DNA of 64,000 bases from a virus (lineage: Duplodnaviria > Heunggongvirae > Uroviricota > Caudoviricetes): the IMG/VR virus record IMGVR_UViG_2541047959_000009. The stretch is one strand, 5' to 3'. Shown piece after piece: positions 561-27,649 of the stretch. The translations under genes and the position numbers were made by a program. Under the pieces are notes generated by a model that did no database searches, was not told where the DNA came from, and was given only the letters and a program-made list of their open reading frames with translations. Numbering within the stretch: the first letter of the stretch is position 1; each line of letters starts with the position of its first letter.

Positions 561-2261
561 ATGGAACACTTAAGACAACTGCAAAATAAAACTTCCCTGT
601 TAGAAAAGTACGGGACTAGTAACGCACATCTTTTATGGTCATTAGGTCTTTACTTAGATGAATCCGATTTTGATAAGCTAGCATCTGATGGACTTACTGA
701 TGGTGGAAACGATAAGAAAATAGACTTCATTACCGTAATTAATTCAACGTTATTTATTGCTCAGGGTTACTACTGCAATCAGCAAGCACTTAAAATAGTT
801 GCGCCTGCAAATAAAGCTTCTGACTTAAACACTGCTTTAGCGTGGATTATGGCAGGCTCAGGAGAGTCTCCAAATGCAAAATTAAGAGCAAAAATTTCTG
901 AGGTTAGAAAATTAATTGATGATAACGAAATTGAAGCTGTTGAATTATTATATATCCATAATTGTGCCGAATCTGAGCAGGTTAAAACTGAGCTTGAAAC
1001 TTGTCGTGACTATCTAGCAGGTAGATTTGCAGACAAAGAAATTGAGGTAACTTACAGAGAACTTGGTGTTAATAGTCTTGAAAAATTGTATATTGCGCTA
1101 TCACAACAAATTGTTGTGACTGACAATATAAAGTTCAATGGCGAACTTATAAATTCTGTACAAGGTGATGGCTGGACTTCACATGTTGGCTTTGCAAACG
1201 GCACTTGGCTAAATTATTTATACAAAAATTATGGAGCAGAATTATTTTCTGCTAATTATAGGGGGTTCATGGGATTAAATAAGAGAAGAAAAATAAACTC
1301 ATCAATTAAGAATACCGCAGAAACATCCCCAAAAGACTTCTTTGTCTTTAACAATGGTGTATCAATCCTAACAACAAAATTCAACAAAGAAAAAGGGTTG
1401 TTGGAAGGAGTTTCAATCATAAATGGAGCTCAAACCACTGGTTCTATTGGTTCAGTTCAAGATATACAAAAATTAGATGGCCTAAAAGTCCTTTGTAAGG
1501 TTATTGAATGTAATGATGCGGACAAAGTAAAAAAAATAGTCCAGTATAATAATACTCAGAATCATATTACAACCTGGGATCACTACTCTAACAGCACAGA
1601 ACAAAAACAGGTGGCAGAAGAATTTTCCACTCTTGGTTATACATATTCACTGAAACGCGGCTTCGAAAATACTGGTTCTTTATTTGGCATTGAGTCTGTT
1701 GCTCAACCGCTGATAGCGTTACATGGGGATTATGTTAGCGCCAATAGAGGTAAAAACTACGTTTTCGATACAAAATCAGCCTATGACAATGCCTTTCATG
1801 ATTCGAAAGCCCAGCATATTTTATGTGCTTACACTATTTCAAAAGCTATAGAAAAAGTAAAATCTCAAATCCGTGCAAAAGAGAATAAAATTAAAGTAGA
1901 TGAGGATAACTTATTATTCCTCCAAAATTTAAAGTCTCGATTCTTTTTAATATCCGTCATCGGAGAAATACTTGAAGAATTAACAGATAAACCTTTGAAC
2001 AAGAAGAAAATAAAATATAAATATGATACAGCATTATCTAAAAATAACTCTCTGGATGATTTAATCGACCTTTGGACACCAGTTATAACTGCGATATTAC
2101 CACATGTTATCCGTGTTTCAGGTCAAGATTTAACCACCTACTTATCTGTAACAGACAACCCGTTATCTATCGTATCAAAGGAAGTTAAAAACATATTAAC
2201 ATCCTTAAAAGCGTTCCAACCGATTGAGCCATTAATTACTCTTTCAAATCACCTTGAATAA
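561..2261 (+). CDS. AIPR-family abortive infection protein (putative), AT-rich cargo in S-V gap
   Basis: 566-aa ORF opposite to flanking late genes; motif FNNGVSIL...NGAQTT typical of AIPR (PF10592) as I recall; AT-rich versus GC-rich phage flanks. Confidence 0.55.
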   Translation: MEHLRQLQNKTSLLEKYGTSNAHLLWSLGLYLDESDFDKLASDGLTDGGNDKKIDFITVINSTLFIAQGYYCNQQALKIVAPANKASDLNTALAWIMAGSGESPNAKLRAKISEVRKLIDDNEIEAVELLYIHNCAESEQVKTELETCRDYLAGRFADKEIEVTYRELGVNSLEKLYIALSQQIVVTDNIKFNGELINSVQGDGWTSHVGFANGTWLNYLYKNYGAELFSANYRGFMGLNKRRKINSSIKNTAETSPKDFFVFNNGVSILTTKFNKEKGLLEGVSIINGAQTTGSIGSVQDIQKLDGLKVLCKVIECNDADKVKKIVQYNNTQNHITTWDHYSNSTEQKQVAEEFSTLGYTYSLKRGFENTGSLFGIESVAQPLIALHGDYVSANRGKNYVFDTKSAYDNAFHDSKAQHILCAYTISKAIEKVKSQIRAKENKIKVDEDNLLFLQNLKSRFFLISVIGEILEELTDKPLNKKKIKYKYDTALSKNNSLDDLIDLWTPVITAILPHVIRVSGQDLTTYLSVTDNPLSIVSKEVKNILTSLKAFQPIEPLITLSNHLE

Positions 2262-18567: not shown

Positions 18568-18810
18568 TTACTTACCAACAATGACGCGGAAGTTGGAATG
18601 ACCGAGGGATTCACGGACCTGATCAGTTTTGTACATCAGATAACGAAGGCTTACGCGGCCTTTATTTTTTTCTTTCTTGACCATGTACTTAGCAAGTTGA
18701 CCATGGTGAATTTTTTGGTAAACAGAGCCACGGGAAATGCCCTCCCACTCTGCGAACTCTGCAGGCGTAGCCATCTCTTTTGGTACACGAATTGAAATAT
18801 CAGTACTCAT
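18568..18810 (-). CDS. apl: 186 Apl-like excisionase/repressor (HTH)
   Basis: 80-aa ORF first in rightward operon, divergent from cI. Confidence 0.65.
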   Translation of the reverse strand: MSTDISIRVPKEMATPAEFAEWEGISRGSVYQKIHHGQLAKYMVKKEKNKGRVSLRYLMYKTDQVRESLGHSNFRVIVGK

Positions 18811-18931
18811 AGTGCAGTATCTCTTACTTTGTGTGCGTGTTAGTTCGTTTTAGCTCGTCTCTTTAACTCTCACATCAAGAGACACGAAGACATTACGATC
18901 TTGATTCAAGATTGTCAAATGGAGATTACCA
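18811..18931. promoter_or_regulatory. Divergent apl/cI switch region (pR/pL-type promoters and operators)
   Basis: 121-bp gap between divergent apl and cI, as in 186. Confidence 0.5.
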
Positions 18932-19564
18932 ATGTTAAACATCAGAATGGGTTCCGATACGGGAGGTAAGGCAGCTATTGAGAGGCTGCTTGAGGCTTAT
19001 GGATTCACAACTAAGCAGGCATTAAGCGAGCACCTGAATGTCTCAAAAAGTACTATGGCAAACAGAGTGTTACGTGACAGTTTTCCTGCTGACTGGATAA
19101 TTCAGTGTGCACTAGAAACCGGTGTTTCGTTACTTTGGTTAGCCACTGGACAGGGAAGCATGAAAGAAGGATACGAGTCTGAGAAAAGATCTCATAACGA
19201 GAACAAACAAGCAATTAAACCGTTATCCAAACTCATAACTCCATCTATTCCTAAAGGAACCTTGGAAAATGGACAACTCAGTATTGATGAAGAGATTTTC
19301 CTAGACCACAGCATATTACCTGCAGATTATGAAGAATCGATGTTCTTAGAAACCCCTACTGATTGTTATCTCATCGATAAATCAGTTAAACAAGTCAGCA
19401 ATGGATTCTGGCTTATCAATATTGATGGAATGATTATTATTGCAAAAATCATGCGGATTCCCGGCAATAAGATTGTAGTAAATCAAGATGAAGCGTCTTT
19501 CGAGTGCTCTGCCGATGATGTGGAAGTTATTGGGCGTGCAGTCAAAGTAATAAAGAGTATCTAA
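18932..19564 (+). CDS. cI: 186 CI-like immunity repressor
   Basis: 210-aa ORF upstream of and co-oriented with int (cI-int operon as in 186). Confidence 0.8.
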   Translation: MLNIRMGSDTGGKAAIERLLEAYGFTTKQALSEHLNVSKSTMANRVLRDSFPADWIIQCALETGVSLLWLATGQGSMKEGYESEKRSHNENKQAIKPLSKLITPSIPKGTLENGQLSIDEEIFLDHSILPADYEESMFLETPTDCYLIDKSVKQVSNGFWLINIDGMIIIAKIMRIPGNKIVVNQDEASFECSADDVEVIGRAVKVIKSI

Positions 19565-19566
19565 AC

Positions 19567-20586
19567 ATGACTGTCAGAAAACAGCCAAACGGTAAATGGT
19601 TGTGCGAGTGCTATCCCAATGGACGCAATGGCAAGCGCGTGCGTAAGCAATTTGCTACGAAAGGCGAAGCCATTGCTTTTGAAAGCTTCACAATGGAAGA
19701 AGTGAACAAAAAACCATGGCTGGGGGAAAAGGAAGATCGGCGACACCTATCAGAATTAATTGAGCAGTGGTATTCCCTGTATGGTCAAACACTCGCAGAC
19801 CCCAAGCGCCTCATAGCGAAACTTAGAATTATCTGTAATGGTCTAGGCGATCCCATCGCTTCAGAACTGACAGCCGGTGACTTTACGAAATACCGCGAAG
19901 CACGGTTAAAAGGTGAAGTACGAAATGAAGATGGCACGTTTATGTCGCCCGTTAAGCCCCGCACGGTAAACCTTGAACAGCGCAATCTATCATCTGTTTT
20001 TGGTACACTGAAAAAGCTGGGCCACTGGTCAGCCCCCAACCCGCTTGCTGGGCTGCCAACATTTAAAATTGCTGAGAGTGAATTGGCGTTCCTGACCCCG
20101 GAAGAAATTAAACGTCTGCTGGATGCCTGCGCCGATTCTCAAAGCTCCAGCCTGCTTTTGATTGCAAAAATATGCCTGGCCACCGGCGCACGCTGGAGCG
20201 AAGCCGAAAACCTGCAGAGTCATCAGGTATCAAAATACCGTATCACTTATACCAAGACCAAAGGCAAGAAAAACCGAACTGTGCCTATTTCTAAGGATTT
20301 ATATGAAGAACTGCCTAAGAATAGGGGGAAGTTATTCACCCCATGCAGAAAAGCCTTTGAGCGTGCAGTAAAGCGAGCCGGTTTAGAACTACCAGAAGGC
20401 CAATGTACCCATGTTCTGCGCCATACATTTGCCAGTCATTTTATGATGAACGGTGGAAATATACTGGTACTGCGCGATATTCTTGGACATGCCGATATAA
20501 AAATGACGATGATTTACGCTCATTTTTCCCCAGATCATCTTGAAGATGCAGTAACTAAAAACCCATTAGCAACCTTGATGGATTAA
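19567..20586 (+). CDS. int: Tyrosine integrase (P2/186 family)
   Basis: 339-aa ORF; C-terminal R...HxLRHT...Y catalytic pattern (VLRHTFAS, IYAHF). Confidence 0.85.
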   Translation: MTVRKQPNGKWLCECYPNGRNGKRVRKQFATKGEAIAFESFTMEEVNKKPWLGEKEDRRHLSELIEQWYSLYGQTLADPKRLIAKLRIICNGLGDPIASELTAGDFTKYREARLKGEVRNEDGTFMSPVKPRTVNLEQRNLSSVFGTLKKLGHWSAPNPLAGLPTFKIAESELAFLTPEEIKRLLDACADSQSSSLLLIAKICLATGARWSEAENLQSHQVSKYRITYTKTKGKKNRTVPISKDLYEELPKNRGKLFTPCRKAFERAVKRAGLELPEGQCTHVLRHTFASHFMMNGGNILVLRDILGHADIKMTMIYAHFSPDHLEDAVTKNPLATLMD

Positions 20587-20590
20587 GCAC

Positions 20591-21814
20591 ATGCGCAACA
20601 TTATCGAATTAGAACAGATATCGGAAGAACTAAAAAAACATGAACTATTGCAACCCCCATTCATTGCCGAGGGAAAACTAATTTCTGACTTTTCTAAGAG
20701 AGTCGAGTGCTATTTAGAATTAATTGACTCCATTAGAAATAAATATCCTGACAACGAGATAATTAAACAAGTAAAGATTCGCACAAAATCAATAATATAT
20801 TTATCTGATAAAATAATAGAAACTCTTAAGCTATTTTTAATAGGAAATGTTAAAGAAGCTTATAAAAAATTCGATTTGGCAATTACCAAGTCATCAATGC
20901 ATACTCATCTTTATAAGATGACTGTTCCTCTAACTAAATTATGCAACCCACACACCCCTTTATTTCGCGTAAGGAAAAGTGAGTGCATCCTAAAACAAAG
21001 AGAAGAATTATTTCATATACCATTTAAAAATAGACATTTAGTTAGCGCACAAAGATTTTCTGTATCCGGTCTTCCATGTTTATATCTTGGAACATCAATA
21101 TTTGTATGTTGGCAAGAAATGGGAAAACCTGACTTTGATAAACTTTACATATCTTCCTTCATATCCGATAAAGAAAATTCAAATATAAGAATTTTAGATC
21201 TTGGGTACAATTTAACATCTGCACTTCGTACAAAACCGGGAGATCTTTGGTATTCATTCGAACAAGGTTCAGATGATGATTACGATCTAAATAATGATAA
21301 TTTCATGGATCAAATTAATGATAAAATTTCAAAGTTGATTGCATGGCCTTTAGTCCTTGCATGTAACTATACAAAAGATAATGAAAACGCAAGTTTTAAT
21401 AAAGAATACATAATACCAAACCTATTAATGCAATGGATTAGTAGTGACAGAAACAAAAATATATCAGGGATATCGTATCGATCAACAAAGATATTAAACC
21501 AAAAAGATAGCGATATTGGGATTAATGTAATTATCCCCCCAAAAATAGAAAACATAGTTGAAACCAATGATACCCACTGTCCTGTTTTAAAAAAAATATT
21601 TAGAGTTACAAACCCTGTTTCCTGGACTGTGTTTAGTACACTAGAAGCCACCCCCTATCTATACAAAAATAATTTTAATTTTTCGACCTATAATCCCGCA
21701 AAAGGATGGATTGAAGACTTTGATGAATCCCTTGTTGAACATTATGAAAATACCACTTTTAGAAAAGTTGAACTCCTTATTCATCAAATGATGAAGTATG
21801 AATATTTAAAATAA
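20591..21814 (+). CDS. RES-domain-like protein (putative NAD-targeting toxin fold), AT-rich cargo after int
   Basis: 407-aa ORF 4 bp after int stop; segment SAQRFSVSGLPCLYLGTSIFVCWQEMG matches the RES Arg/Ser/Glu signature as I recall. Confidence 0.5.
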   Translation: MRNIIELEQISEELKKHELLQPPFIAEGKLISDFSKRVECYLELIDSIRNKYPDNEIIKQVKIRTKSIIYLSDKIIETLKLFLIGNVKEAYKKFDLAITKSSMHTHLYKMTVPLTKLCNPHTPLFRVRKSECILKQREELFHIPFKNRHLVSAQRFSVSGLPCLYLGTSIFVCWQEMGKPDFDKLYISSFISDKENSNIRILDLGYNLTSALRTKPGDLWYSFEQGSDDDYDLNNDNFMDQINDKISKLIAWPLVLACNYTKDNENASFNKEYIIPNLLMQWISSDRNKNISGISYRSTKILNQKDSDIGINVIIPPKIENIVETNDTHCPVLKKIFRVTNPVSWTVFSTLEATPYLYKNNFNFSTYNPAKGWIEDFDESLVEHYENTTFRKVELLIHQMMKYEYLK

Positions 21815-21930
21815 GAGTGGCGGCATAATGGCGGCAAAGAGTTAAAAACACATAAAACAAGGTAATACATCGTAAACTTAAGTGATTGAAAATTAACATA
21901 AATAGTTGTTTTGCAACATGTTATAATGGT

Positions 21931-21975
21931 ATGTAGGAATTTCGGACGCGGGTTCAACTCCCGCCAGCTCCACCA
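21931..21975 (+). other. 45-nt copy of the ssrA (tmRNA) 3-prime end: prophage attachment core
   Basis: atgtaggaatttcggacgcgggttcaactcccgccagctccacca matches the remembered E. coli ssrA 3-prime end; upstream is unrelated AT-rich DNA. Confidence 0.7.
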
Positions 21976-22104
21976 ATCATGATTGGACGGTGTAAGGACA
22001 ACACCAACAAAAACAGGAAGTTAGAAGTCTCAGCAGGACACCGACCAGACGGTGAGGAGACATAAAAGGATACGCAAAGGAGCCGCGGCTCCGAAGTGAA
22101 ATGA

Positions 22105-22129
22105 AAGCCCGCTGATGCGGGCTTTTTTG
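22105..22129 (+). terminator. Rho-independent terminator
   Basis: agcccgc tgat gcgggct followed by tttttt. Confidence 0.6.
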
Positions 22130-22360: not shown

Positions 22361-22558
22361 ATGGCACTGGACAGTTATGCATCTCCGAATATTATTCCGG
22401 AGCTAAGACAACCGAATGCCGCAGCAGGTAAGATCACGCTAGGGGGGCTGGACAGAATGGCTGTTACGCCCAGTGTGAAGAAAAGAAGGCTAAGTATGGT
22501 AGAATTTCCATACGCACAGACCTTGTTATCCGACTATACAGCCTGGAAGGCACTATGA
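22361..22558 (+). CDS. Small ORF upstream of and overlapping the nuclease-like gene (uncertain)
   Basis: 65-aa ORF with ATGA stop-start overlap with the next gene. Confidence 0.3.
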   Translation: MALDSYASPNIIPELRQPNAAAGKITLGGLDRMAVTPSVKKRRLSMVEFPYAQTLLSDYTAWKAL

Positions 22559-23343
22559 CAAATCTACAACTGGAAGAAAGATTTAGGGCGCTTGAGAAAG
22601 ATTACGATGCGCTCATTTCCACAAAATATACTGCGCAGAACGTTCTCACTCACACTATGGAAACCTATGTTGATTCTGGTAAATATAAAAACTGGATCGC
22701 CAGAGTGAAAAAGTTAATAGAGGACAGCTACGGAAAAGAGTCTGATTATTACAATGACTTCAATACTGTAAACAGCAGGTGGTCTTCTAATTACAATACA
22801 CTGATCAAAAGTTATAAACCGTTGTTTGATGCGGCGAGAGATGATCTTGCGCACTCTGCTGTCAGTACTAATACTCCTCAAGAAGGTTCGCCGCTGAGCC
22901 TCGTACTTAATATTCTTAACAGGTTTCCGACCTTTGTTCGCCAGTTAAAGAGGCGGTACAACGGCCGTGCGCCGCTTGAAGTTAATGATGAGTATGACGT
23001 ACAGGATTTGATTTATGCACTGCTGACGCTTCATTTTAATGATATTAGGGCGGAAGAGTATACCCCCAGCTTTGCGGGCGCGGCCTCAAGACAGGACTTT
23101 CTTTTGAAAAAAGAGAAAATTGTGATAGAGGTGAAGAAAACCCGTGAATCTCTGGGAGCGGGTAAAGTTGGTGGAGAGTTGCTTATTGATATGGCGCGCT
23201 ACCGCGCTCACCAAGACTGCGATACGTTGATCTTGTTTGTATATGACCCGGATTGCTACATAAATAATCCTTTGGGCGTGAAAACCGATCTGGAATCTAA
23301 AGACGCGGAAGGAAAAGTGAAGGTTGTTATTGCGCAGTTCTGA
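22555..23343 (+). CDS. PD-(D/E)xK nuclease-like protein (putative restriction-endonuclease fold)
   Basis: 262-aa ORF; C-terminal EYDVQD...RQDFLLKKEKIVIEVKK fits D...D/E-x-K; helical N-terminal domain. Confidence 0.55.
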   Translation: MTNLQLEERFRALEKDYDALISTKYTAQNVLTHTMETYVDSGKYKNWIARVKKLIEDSYGKESDYYNDFNTVNSRWSSNYNTLIKSYKPLFDAARDDLAHSAVSTNTPQEGSPLSLVLNILNRFPTFVRQLKRRYNGRAPLEVNDEYDVQDLIYALLTLHFNDIRAEEYTPSFAGAASRQDFLLKKEKIVIEVKKTRESLGAGKVGGELLIDMARYRAHQDCDTLILFVYDPDCYINNPLGVKTDLESKDAEGKVKVVIAQF

Positions 23344-23378
23344 CACGCTTAAGTGTCACCTTACAGGATTAGGTTTGC

Positions 23379-23423
23379 GGCCGTGCCAGCAGGACGAGCA
23401 TGAAAAAGGCCGCTGGCACGGCC
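23379..23423. terminator. Hairpin between convergent genes
   Basis: ggccgtgccagc ... gctggcacggcc 12-bp stem. Confidence 0.4.
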
Positions 23424-23430
23424 GGATTTG

Positions 23431-23724
23431 TCATCTTTGCCAGGTCAAATCAAAATCTACGTGAAAATCCGCAGGCTTAAGCTCGCAACTGCCACCACGC
23501 CCAATTAACGACGTTATGTTTACAACGTTTGAACCTGTTGAGATGGCAAGTTGAGTGTCATCTGTAAACGTGATGATTAGCATTTCAGTCTGATGAACCT
23601 GTACTCCAGTTTTCTGAAAACCAATCTGGACAGATTTCACCGTTTTCCCAACCATTTCACGGGCTTGATTGATAGAGTAATTAGCTTCAACTTGTAGGTC
23701 ATTCCTGAACTTGGGTAGTGTCAT
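23431..23724 (-). CDS. Hypothetical 97-aa protein
   Basis: ORF with AAGAGGATG RBS. Confidence 0.45.
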   Translation of the reverse strand: MTLPKFRNDLQVEANYSINQAREMVGKTVKSVQIGFQKTGVQVHQTEMLIITFTDDTQLAISTGSNVVNITSLIGRGGSCELKPADFHVDFDLTWQR

Positions 23725-23934
23725 TTTACATCCTCTTTAGTGAAGTTTTCGCTATTTAAATCAGCAGCATTCCTTTTAAATCACTGGCATGTCAGCAGTG
23801 GATAGTCTGAGTGTAACGTCCAGTGAGGGGAATAAATATTGGTCAGACTTTGCACAAAAGAGCCAACTATCGCGGGCTCTCTCTCATCATGTGCGAAAAT
23901 TGACCACAATATGAAATCCAGTTCCATTCCGAAA

Positions 23935-24759
<825 letters not shown>

Positions 24760-24865
24760 TCAATTGACAACTTATAATCCCTACTAGTTAGCATTATGAT
24801 TTCCAGAGTGAGGAATATAAAAATCTCTGTTTCTGGCACATAACAGCCCTTAAGATCGTAGCTCG

Positions 24866-24915
24866 CCATCATGGGGTGTCGGGGGGCGGAGGTTCAAATC
24901 CTCTCGTGCCGACCA
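24866..24915 (+). other. 3-prime fragment of a tRNA-Pro(UGG)-like gene (att-like remnant), not an intact tRNA
   Basis: catggggtgtcggggggcggaggttcaaatcctctcgtgccgacca matches remembered proM 3-prime half; no complementary 5-prime acceptor strand upstream. Confidence 0.55.
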
Positions 24916-24928
24916 AAAATCCCTTAAG

Positions 24929-24955
24929 AACCAGCCTATTATGGCTGGTTTTTTT
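24929..24955 (+). terminator. Rho-independent terminator after the tRNA-Pro fragment
   Basis: aaccagcc tattat ggctggtt then ttttt. Confidence 0.6.
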
Positions 24956-25156
24956 ATGATTGTTTTTTATGCGGAGAAATACCGGGGAATAATTGGGGTA
25001 AAACACCTTTAGGCTATTCACTTAGCCTACCACCATCAAAATCTTTCCGAATGTATCCATCTCTTTTTTCTTATGCAGCTAAAACGAAGTCTTGATACTG
25101 TTTATTTACACAGATAAGAATAATACTGTCTACAAACGCAGTACAAAAGAAGTGTT

Positions 25157-25335
25157 ATGCGTATTGAGATCTCCATAGCCAAAGACAAAATGACCAAATG
25201 CCAAACGGCGCTGTGGACGCGTTAAAGGAAGAATTAACCCAACACATTGGCAAGCGTTATGACGATGTGGAGATGATCGTAAAAGCCACCAGCAACGATA
25301 GTTTTTCAGTTAGACATACTGCAGATAAAGATTGA
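25157..25335 (+). pseudogene. dinI-like gene disrupted by a frameshift
   Basis: [11 protein letters not shown]... stops after 22 codons; the DinI-like remainder ...[37 protein letters not shown] is in another frame. Confidence 0.45.
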
Positions 25336-25759
25336 GCTAAAACTTTCGTTCAGGAAACTCTGAATGATACCTGAGAGTCTACTGAAGAGTTGTTTGTTCA
25401 CTAGTTAGCACGTAGGAAATCATTCAATACTCGCACTATCGGAAGTTCACCAGCCAGTCGTAGCACGTCCTTGCAAACGACGTGCCTACGGTTTCAATCA
25501 CCTCTCACCATCAATTCTATCAATAATAATTAAACAGCGCCTAGACAAAATAAATAACAACAAGTCAACAACCTCGACAGGATGCCGATGGGATGATGAA
25601 GAGATAAGAAAGAATAACCAGTAAAGCCCTAAAACGTCAGCGTTCAGACGCGTTTTTTACTTAATCGGTAACAAATACGTTGTATCATAGCAAAATAAAA
25701 TGATTGTTCTAAATCAGATTAACTCCTCACTTTTGTACAATGTCGCTTACAGGTATACC

Positions 25760-27649
25760 ATGAAATCCGAGACGCTAACTGTCCAACAACTTTTTCAAGA
25801 CCGCCGACAATACTGTGTTCCATTCTATCAACGTGCCTATGTATGGACTCAGCAAGACCAGTGGTCAGCTCTACTGGAGGATATCCTAGAGAAAGTACAA
25901 TCCCGGCTCTCGGGTACAAAACCAACTCCCCATTTCCTTGGTGCGGTTGTACTGGAACCTCAATCAAAAAAAGGATTATTAGGTGTAGATTCCATACATA
26001 TTATTGATGGTCAGCAACGATTGACCACTCTTCAATATGTTCTGGCATCCATCCGATTAGCATTACGTGCTACGGATCTTTCCAGCTTAGAGGCTCTCAT
26101 TTCGCCTTGCCTGAAAAACTCAAACGAAGACACAATGCGAAATAAAGAAGTAGAACGCTTCAAACTGTGGCCAACTTTTCGGGATCAAACTCATTTTATT
26201 CAAAGTTTTAATGTTGAAAATATTGACGATCTCCGGGACGTATTCTCTGATAGTTTCACGCAGCATGGTACGTTGCGTAAGCATTTTAATCACCCGCCAT
26301 CACTAGAAGCATTATGTTTTTTTACTGAAGCCTTTATAAAATGGATTAAAATAGAAAACCACTCACCACAAGAAAATGCTGTAGCTCTAATTGAGGCTGT
26401 CTTAACAGATCTGAAACTGGTAAGCATATTTCTCGAAGCTGAAGATGATGCCCAAATAATTTTTGAAACATTAAATGGGCGAGGGGCGGAACTTCATGCT
26501 ACGGATCTTATTCGCAACTATATCTTTATGTGCGCTGAGCATGAAAATATTAATGCTATTGAATTATATGAAAATGAGTGGAAGAGCTTTGAAGATAAAT
26601 ACTGGTCGGAAAAACAACGCCGTGGACGTATTAATAAACCACGCATGGAGTGGCTAGTACATGCGACATTGCAATCAGAAAGGCAACGTGAAATTGATCT
26701 GTCTCGCCTTTACAATGAGTATCGTGATTATGTAAGTAAGGACTTGTCTTCACAACGAGCAGATCTGCAAGTAAAGCGCCTCAAACAATATGCATCACAA
26801 TATAAAGAATTGGTTGATGGTTTTGGCACAACCCCCATCTCACACTTTGGATATCGCATCGCAGACTATGATGTGACGACACTTTATCCGCTTGCTTTGT
26901 TCATTTCGATAGCTAACATCGCTGATGATGAGAAAGCAGCCATGTATAATGATCTTGTCTCCTACGTAGTACGAAGAGCCGTATGTGGCCTGACGCCAAA
27001 GAATTACAACAATGTATTTATGAATGTATTGCGGCACTTGGCTAAAACGGAAATTTCCAGTGTTGAGTTACGTAATATCCTCAATAACTTAAATGGCGAA
27101 GCCTCACGTTGGCCTGGTGACTCAGAATTTCTCAACGCTTGCATCAATGCTCCACTTTATCCTGGCAGGCTCGACGCACCGAAAATGCGCTCAATGTTAA
27201 CGGAACTTGAAAGAGAACTTTGTCGCCAAGTAAAGACAGAAAAGCCTGATGTTCCAAATCTTTCTAATCTCGATATCGATCATCTTATGCCTCAAAGTTG
27301 GTATTCCTGTTGGCCTCTCGAAAATGGTCGTATGGTGACAAATTCAGATGCTACGGTATTGAACCAAATTGTTCTGTCTGGAACCGATCTTACCCCTGAA
27401 CAGCTACTGGTAAGGAAACGGCAACAAGCGATATCTACTTTGGGAAATCTAACTTTGCTTAACCTTAGCGTAAACCGTTCTGTTCAGAATGCTGTATTTC
27501 TGAAAAAACGTGATGCTCTCATCGTCCACACCAATCTACGACTGAACATTCCACTTATAGTTAAGGATAAATGGGATGAGGATGAAATCCTGGAGCGGGG
27601 TAAAAAGTTGGGGGAAATTGCATTGAAAGTATGGCCAAAACACGATTAA
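25760..27649 (+). CDS. GmrSD-family type IV restriction endonuclease-like protein (DUF262 + DUF1524)
   Basis: N-terminal QRAYVW and IIDGQQRLTTL; C-terminal DIDHLMPQS...GNLTLLN His-Me finger; ORF opens at 25700 but AGGT RBS favours ATG 25760. Confidence 0.75.
   Translation: MKSETLTVQQLFQDRRQYCVPFYQRAYVWTQQDQWSALLEDILEKVQSRLSGTKPTPHFLGAVVLEPQSKKGLLGVDSIHIIDGQQRLTTLQYVLASIRLALRATDLSSLEALISPCLKNSNEDTMRNKEVERFKLWPTFRDQTHFIQSFNVENIDDLRDVFSDSFTQHGTLRKHFNHPPSLEALCFFTEAFIKWIKIENHSPQENAVALIEAVLTDLKLVSIFLEAEDDAQIIFETLNGRGAELHATDLIRNYIFMCAEHENINAIELYENEWKSFEDKYWSEKQRRGRINKPRMEWLVHATLQSERQREIDLSRLYNEYRDYVSKDLSSQRADLQVKRLKQYASQYKELVDGFGTTPISHFGYRIADYDVTTLYPLALFISIANIADDEKAAMYNDLVSYVVRRAVCGLTPKNYNNVFMNVLRHLAKTEISSVELRNILNNLNGEASRWPGDSEFLNACINAPLYPGRLDAPKMRSMLTELERELCRQVKTEKPDVPNLSNLDIDHLMPQSWYSCWPLENGRMVTNSDATVLNQIVLSGTDLTPEQLLVRKRQQAISTLGNLTLLNLSVNRSVQNAVFLKKRDALIVHTNLRLNIPLIVKDKWDEDEILERGKKLGEIALKVWPKHD

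Follow-up and report, generated by a model that had tools for sequence, protein, structure and literature searches.

The locus described here raises two questions: what is encoded by the AT-rich gene lying between the integrase gene and the attachment core of an Escherichia coli prophage, and what might it do for the lysogen that carries it? The window analysed is a stretch of 64,000 nucleotides from a tailed virus of the Caudoviricetes (IMG/VR record IMGVR_UViG_2541047959_000009), the DNA of which is 100% identical to E. coli S88 (NC_011742.1). The gene in question is an open reading frame (ORF) with an ATG start at window positions 20591-21814 on the plus strand, stop codon included. Its 407-aa product, WP_001244285.1, is labelled 'hypothetical protein' by NCBI in S88, while the UniRef entry of identical sequence, B7MJK4, is already labelled 'RES domain-containing protein'. 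An initial annotation, made from the DNA alone, had taken it for a RES-like gene appended to the cI-int operon. By sequence comparison, the gene encodes a standalone, single-chain RES-domain enzyme, with a conserved catalytic core that is flanked and interrupted by fast-evolving non-catalytic parts. This enzyme is probably an autoinhibited, infection-triggered nicotinamide adenine dinucleotide (NAD+) phosphorylase, which would be expressed in the lysogen and abort superinfection.

RES-Domain Identity of the Protein

In searches with the Pfam collection, the RES profile (PF08808, gathering threshold 23.2 bits) was the recurrent match of the relatives of the window protein, being found in 15 of the 25 close relatives and, at E<=0.01, in 23 of the 58 diverse ones. 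Four individually checked relatives were over the Pfam cut-off (P0447 with 35.2 bits, P0437 with 26.4, P0489 with 25.8 and P0218 with 25.5), and the relatives passing it had been retrieved at E values of 1e-45 to 1e-56. The SPbeta homologue YopC reached 22.4 bits, and for some relatives NCBI or UniRef already use the name 'RES domain-containing'; the PHROGs match was phrog_7835, a family of unknown function. The profile search that had been proposed as a check of the RES assignment therefore came out in its favour through these relatives, the window protein itself remaining below the threshold. Structure prediction, proposed for the same purpose, also counted in favour: the AlphaFold model, for which 25 homologues were used, is a confident one (pLDDT 78, pTM 0.80), although a Foldseek comparison of it with the PDB gave no match.

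The Arg/Ser/Glu signature of RES domains had been pointed out in the initial annotation on the basis of the motif RFSVSGLPCLYLGTSIFVCWQE, which corresponds to residues 155-176. Its residues proved to be nearly invariant among 366 relatives, these being the family members of at least 300 aa. Position 126 is Arg in 341 sequences and Lys in 25, R128 is conserved in 365, R155 and Y165 in all 366 and E176 in 365, and position 298 is Ser in 335 and Thr in 29. Judged by the order and spacing of the motifs, R128, R155, Y165 and E176 are the counterparts of R27, R47, Y58 and E69 of MbcT, the local hhalign alignment covering Y58 and E69 only; R27, R47 and Y58 of MbcT are essential for toxicity. A RES fold, the Arg, Glu and Ser residues together with the NAD-binding Arg and Tyr, and homology through relatives and profiles were all found, and the active site is intact.

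The same conservation bears on the idea that the ORF is a passenger of an AT-rich insert, decaying or without function, which would agree with the NCBI annotation as hypothetical only, with the low guanine-cytosine (GC) content and with the rarity of this allele in E. coli (3 of 5426 complete genomes). This explanation is highly improbable and is already contradicted by conservation: the frame is intact and of full length, the identical sequence is present on 164 contigs, the structure prediction is confident, and the family comprises 2724 representatives (clustering at 50% identity, E<=0.001) of the same length and with invariant catalytic residues. These come from Gammaproteobacteria, Bacteroidota, Bacillota, Planctomycetota and other taxa.

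Relationship to the Antiphage Protein aRES

In January 2026, aRES were reported as standalone RES-domain antiphage proteins from E. coli UC5, K. pneumoniae and E. chengduensis (Osterman et al., bioRxiv 10.64898/2026.01.28.702374). According to this preprint, they protect against phages by converting NAD+ into nicotinamide and adenosine diphosphate ribose (ADPR)-1''-phosphate, with growth arrest, and they are defined as standalone RES proteins of 300-600 aa with hhsearch matches to both RES and PF18870. The active-site residues whose mutation abolishes defence are R182, R184, R215, Y225, E236 and S334 (10.64898/2026.01.28.702374).

We compared the window protein with the aRES sequences given in Table S4 of the preprint. 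BLASTP aligned it colinearly with aRES UC5, residues 124-327 against 180-364, with 25% identity over 212 residues and an E value of 2e-7 that refers to a search of three sequences. When the family was aligned with aRES by hhalign, the probability was 94.3% (E 9.7e-8) for the full-length proteins and 94.4% (E 9e-8) for the RES halves alone. In the BLASTP alignment R182, R184, R215, Y225, E236 and S334 fall on the identical residues R126, R128, R155, Y165, E176 and S298, six out of six. As judged from these alignments, the window protein is a relative of aRES that shares its catalytic module and differs from it in the front part. For the N-terminal halves, hhalign of the window family with aRES gave only 1.7% (E 0.03), near the cross-domain controls (E 0.11 and 0.58). 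The PF18870 profile detected aRES UC5, used as positive control, with 21.3 bits in HMMER. A reading of the N-terminal domain as an aRES N-terminus without zinc was not retained, the full-length hhalign alignment having run into this domain and the domain-only comparison staying at control level.

The family also has features of its own. All 366 relatives have H142 (window 21014-21016), which is part of a conserved motif, FHIPF, separating the two regions of the catalytic arginines, and the aRES segment aligned to this motif, NFGPPP, has no histidine; H142 may be a family-specific catalytic or phosphate-binding residue. Together with W174 and E272 it makes up the invariant residues peculiar to this family with respect to aRES, and it is a further possibility that the three change the chemistry or the substrate.

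A different chemistry would also be implied if the RES core were a target-specific ADP-ribosyltransferase that, like ParT, which modifies Prs, acts on a host or phage macromolecule and does not deplete NAD+; a role in defence or in host modulation would still be possible. We regard this as unlikely, since the closest relative of known chemistry is aRES, an NAD+ phosphorylase, all of whose six tested residues are kept, and since MbcT and NatT, which are also top structural matches, are phosphorylases as well.

Domain Architecture and Sequence Variability

The protein can be divided into five segments (all on the plus strand), the mean pairwise identities of which were calculated for 25 enterobacterial homologues. 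Residues 1-119 (20591-20947) form an all-helical N-terminal domain, with helices between residues 2 and 109 at a pLDDT of ~85-96, and are variable (32% identity). The first half of the RES core follows in residues 120-192 (20948-21166), contains R126, R128, H142, R155, Y165 and E176, and is the best conserved part (71%). Inside the RES domain lies an insert of residues 193-250 (21167-21340), acidic and hypervariable, with 21% identity and many indels; it was predicted with low confidence (pLDDT <50 at 216-235). The second half of the core, residues 251-345 (21341-21625), with the EYIIPN helix and the GISYRS(298)TK strand, is 56% identical and aligns with 'DYLITQ...GVSFKS(334)TQ' of aRES. The C-terminal tail, residues 346-407 (21626-21811), is again variable (33%) and partly helical, with helices at 377-400, and many distant relatives stop near profile position 335-345.

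This division also settles in part what had been described as a long C-terminal region of unknown function: the description holds for the ~60 residues without assignment (346-407), while the rest is mostly the second RES half (~251-345, with the Ser motif at 298), lying past the variable insert. In hmmscan searches, residues 1-123 gave no Pfam match; they have no cysteine motif, and an Xre/MbcA-like domain was not detected in the N-terminal domain. We propose this helical domain as a sensor or autoinhibitory module.

The Prophage, the int-att Slot and Expression

The host element is a 186/P2-like (Peduoviridae) prophage integrated in ssrA. The 3' end of ssrA (GGTTCAACTCCCGCCAGCTCCACCA, 21951-21975), which occurs once in the window, was recognised as att core by eye, an assignment that the S88 annotation then bore out; neither Rfam nor tRNA scans gave a match in this region. 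The free phage Cartapus shares, with 100% identity, a 52-bp stretch (21925-21976) that contains this ssrA-derived core. In S88, an intact ssrA directly abuts the other end of the prophage, ~34 kb upstream, and because of this the site downstream of the RES gene is attR and the gene lies between int and the att core, as the initial annotation had placed it. The genes around it are annotated in S88 as Rha/apl-like, CII, Fil, Dam methylase, a frameshifted replication endonuclease and portal. The replication endonuclease gene (gpA, ~13444-15884, minus strand) is the frameshifted one, and the prophage may be defective, with its lysogenic operon and cargo genes intact.

The lysogenic operon begins with the cI repressor gene (18932-19564, plus strand; 'phage repressor protein CI' in S88, with homologues carrying Phage_CI_repr/Phage_CI_C), which is followed on the same strand by the tyrosine integrase gene (19567-20586). 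The coordinates bear out that the RES gene starts 4 nt after int on the same strand, the gap (gcac) occupying 20587-20590, and that it is AT-rich, with a GC content of 0.30-0.32 across the ORF versus 0.47-0.49 in int and ~0.52-0.54 in the late genes. Between its stop codon and att there is no gene, only 110 nt of non-coding phage arm before the att core; the arm, which related phages have in common and which includes the core as displaced ssrA 3' end (21925-21975), spans the 160 nt of 21816-21975 on the plus strand.

The gene occupies a swappable cassette. In other E. coli prophages, the same slot between int and att holds a 222-aa hypothetical gene, a dCTP deaminase-like gene with thyX, or a 419-aa allele of the RES family. 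Homology between these variants breaks in the last 18 nt of int (~20568; against phages with other cargo it ends at ~20564-20570), so that the cassette has its left edge in the final ~18 nt of int, and it resumes 2 nt past the RES stop codon (21816, or 21816-21818). The position is thus fixed and its contents differ among close phages. In E. coli WL297 (locus L097, 2208-3763), where the dCTP-deaminase-domain gene precedes thyX, nucleotide-pool defence and phage metabolism are both conceivable. Among the best 80 IMG/VR loci, the RES gene directly follows the integrase gene in 74; the integrases beside it are nearly all 90-96% identical to that of the window, and the RES proteins range from 38 to 100% identity. 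A Salmonella allele is indexed in >6000 blocks of an assembly collection.

The int-att interval has been described as a minor defence hotspot, with ~3% of the defence systems of P2-like phages (10.64898/2026.02.27.708500), and the main hotspots of these phages lie elsewhere, in the interval between replication (A/primase) and portal and within the tail genes (PMC9122126; 10.64898/2026.02.27.708500). A text search of both publications found no mention of RES. Because the alternative cargo genes of the slot had no significant match to known defence genes in PADLOC, the defence character of the interval rests on the literature.

As to expression, no terminator-like site was predicted on the plus strand from 18663 to 22103, where the first predicted terminator past the operon (22103-22126, plus strand), on the host side, likely ends the cI-int-RES transcript. 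Promoter prediction returned promoter-like sites at chance level and none above it, and there is no room for a promoter of its own in the cassette because this begins inside the last 18 nt of int. The 4-nt gap, the absence of a terminator and the lack of room for a promoter make co-transcription with cI and int in the lysogen the simplest and a plausible reading of the sequence, from which we infer expression from the lysogenic promoter.

Absence of a Partner Gene and Genomic Neighbourhoods

There is no adjacent Xre-type partner, as had been stated in the initial annotation: int lies upstream, the non-coding arm and att lie downstream, and no partner is conserved elsewhere. Among 144 flanking genes from 74 diverse, non-redundant genomic loci of the family, no Xre or DUF2384 antitoxin was recurrent, and the sole recurrent flanking family was phage integrase (9 of 144). 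An antisense ORF of 94 aa (21367-21651), considered as a hidden partner, was discarded, being not conserved in four homologous loci. In SPbeta (locus L094, 3348-5011), yopB, a helix-turn-helix gene of 75 aa, lies 108 nt upstream of the homologue yopC (442 aa); in the SPbeta lineage only, yopB may be a regulator or an antitoxin-like partner.

These neighbourhoods speak to a possible prophage-maintenance or persistence toxin, that is, a fused, self-inhibited module of the toxin-antitoxin (TA) kind whose role would be to keep the prophage stable or to make stressed cells dormant, with no response to phages. Most RES proteins are type II TA toxins linked to persistence or plasmid stability, and NatT has no phage phenotype; the gene lies in the lysogenic operon of an element whose replication gene A is frameshifted and which therefore seems to be retained and possibly domesticated. 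Such a role is nevertheless improbable: an antitoxin gene is lacking here and is not conserved elsewhere, no Xre/MbcA-like domain is seen in the N-terminus, and the nearest characterised relative is an antiphage protein. The alleles are hypervariable, and their rapid turnover beside a near-constant integrase, with variable surfaces round a conserved core, fits an arms race better.

Neighbours of relatives include Avs2, Dpd, DISARM, BREX, type IV restriction and TIR genes. In one metagenomic relative of 611 aa (locus L009, 3522-5357), the N-terminal domain and the RES domain are fused to a restriction endonuclease of the LlaMI/MvaI type, and the gene adjoins an OLD-TOPRIM ATPase and a UvrD-like helicase in a Gabija-like arrangement. 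A role in the phage life cycle or in counter-defence, for example by consuming NAD+-derived immune signals or adjusting host NAD+ at induction, would be in line with the many phage enzymes processing NAD or ADPR that serve counter-defence and with the presence of the gene in the functional phages Cartapus, RE2010, SopEPhi and SPbeta. We consider it very improbable, since the site behind cI-int implies expression in the lysogen over lytic growth, relatives are also common outside prophages, by defence genes in chromosomes of Bacteroidota and Bacillota, and one of them carries the endonuclease fusion just mentioned.

Proposed Function and Mechanism

The observations are best accommodated, in our opinion, by an enzyme that in the uninfected lysogen would be kept inactive in cis, with no antitoxin gene. 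The variable parts would sense another infecting phage, and sensing would release the conserved core, leading to NAD+ depletion. The loss of NAD+ would then arrest the cell and block the superinfecting phage, an abortive infection from which the lysogen population would benefit. We judge this course of events probable as a whole; within it, we infer that the enzyme inhibits itself, responds to a trigger, acts on NAD+ and defends the lysogen.

Several results weigh against this proposal or against the RES assignment on which it builds. AT-rich genes in E. coli may be silenced by H-NS. The window protein itself lies below the PF08808 cut-off, with 12.2 bits and an E value of 0.19 for residues 141-205 against profile positions 11-75, and the catalytic loop around R155 was modelled at a pLDDT <50. 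Alignment of the family by hhalign with a 20-sequence alignment of the MbcT clade was not significant (7.6% over 21 columns), its register being right (Y165 and E176 on Y58 and E69), and local hmmsearch comparisons between family and MbcT clade were weak in both directions. HMMER profiles of the family, made from 25 and from 58 sequences, retrieved no RES chain from all PDB sequences, only helical-bundle noise on the N-terminal domain, and Foldseek found for the model no match at E<=0.001 and no RES chain in the PDB and BFVD. Neither PADLOC nor NCBIfam has a model matching the RES protein. PF18870 was not found by hmmscan in residues 1-123, the criterion of the aRES preprint being hhsearch, and its Table S2 of aRES homologues contains neither 'S88' nor 'Bacillus subtilis', the host of yopC, the presence of both among the 38,149 analysed genomes being unconfirmed, as is that of Cronobacter, likewise missing from the table. 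The list of defence genes next to relatives is a raw one, and yopB-yopC of SPbeta is a two-gene arrangement in at least one lineage, though not a general one. A literature search found no published toxicity, NAD+ or phage-challenge data for the family and no paper naming the protein; when extended to the window protein, yopC and other RES defence systems, it returned only the aRES preprint.

The novelty lies in a distinct family, found very widely, that combines a different N-terminal module with a fixed position in the lysogenic operon of a prophage and whose function is predicted. It is limited by the label 'RES', which UniRef and one phage record already use, and by the description of aRES as a standalone RES defence in January 2026; the principle itself is not new. 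We think it quite possible, though somewhat short of probable, that the family represents a second, independent standalone RES immune family, in which a new helical sensing module replaces PF18870 and which is hard-wired in the cI-int operon of ssrA-integrating 186-like prophages of E. coli and Salmonella, its alleles being exchanged as a precise cassette. In that case its phage triggers would be different, it might escape aRES-specific inhibitors, and RES NAD+ phosphorylases would have been recruited to immunity more than once.

Current annotation misses the gene, with no PADLOC model, an NCBI label 'hypothetical' and a place outside the aRES definition. Should the prediction prove right, an NAD+-destroying immunity gene expressed in the lysogen would be carried by a prophage lineage that is among the commonest in E. 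coli and Salmonella, and the RES branch of NAD+-centred immunity would extend beyond aRES. There would also be a natural series of alleles that differ in their sensing parts round an unchanging catalytic core, with which recognition could be mapped, and the gene would have a bearing on host range in phage therapy and on the phage counter-defences NARP1-AP and aRad1.

Further Candidate Defence Genes in and near the Prophage

The prophage contains other genes related to defence. A 'hypothetical protein' of 469 aa (11130-12536, minus strand) matches PD-T7-1 of PADLOC with an E value of 1.3e-196; this known defence gene sits between portal and the DinI-like/replication region, which is the main P2 hotspot. 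An AIPR-family protein encoded among baseplate and tail genes (561-2258, plus strand) matches AbiU of PADLOC (E 1.7e-24). Counting the RES gene, the number of candidate defence cargos in the prophage is therefore at least three, spread over three positions.

Just past attR, a second island (22555-27646) looks like a tandem ssrA-associated defence island and is followed by e14-like tail-fibre remnants. It encodes a PD-(D/E)XK nuclease (22555-23340) resembling the C-terminal part of 'Aga_Helical-REase' (E 1e-26), a GIY-YIG protein (23938-24741, minus strand) identified as PD-T4-3 (E 1e-135) and a DUF262 type IV methyl-directed restriction enzyme (25700-27646, E 0).

Comparison with Known Systems

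The closest known system is aRES. Like it, the window protein is an enterobacterial standalone protein of ~400 aa with a C-terminal RES domain and no operonic partner, and both occur among mobile-element and defence genes. By analogy, its expected action would be the same, an infection-triggered phosphorolysis of NAD+ to nicotinamide and ADPR-1''-phosphate, followed by growth arrest. The N-terminus of aRES, however, is a Cys-rich (CxxC...CxxC) HEPN/RES N-terminal domain 1 (PF18870), while that of the window protein is helical, Cys-free and ~120 aa long; moreover, the window family has a hypervariable insert, and a fixed site in a prophage lysogenic operon has not been described for aRES. The window protein was not filed as aRES because it lacks the PF18870 domain and because its host strain is absent from the table of the preprint.

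The RES toxins of type II RES-Xre TA systems (MbcT, P. putida Res, ParT, NatT and VPA0770) are 150-250 aa long and have a single domain; a separate gene encodes the antitoxin of the Xre/MbcA type that neutralises them by plugging the active site. The window gene, in contrast, has no antitoxin gene next to it, and its product is no small single-domain toxin, having, within its 407 aa, a helical N-terminal domain of 119 aa, an insert of 58 aa and a tail of 62 aa; its sequence similarity to this clade is not significant.

With the lysogen-expressed exclusion genes and the defence hotspots of P2-like phages (old, tin, fun; Rousset et al. 2022, PMC9122126), the RES gene shares the form of an AT-rich accessory cassette in a fixed, swappable position, but it lies in the int-att interval, outside the main published hotspots. 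The same logic is finally found in the SIR2 proteins DSR1/DSR2 and in TIR-domain and Avs-type NADases, in which a sensing region and an NAD+-destroying domain are united in one polypeptide, inactive until infection and encoded on mobile elements. Their fold is SIR2 or TIR, whereas that of the window protein is RES/ADP-ribosyltransferase, and their product is ADPR, whereas ADPR-1''-phosphate would be expected here, a difference that matters for phage counter-defences based on NAD+ reconstitution (10.64898/2026.01.28.702374).

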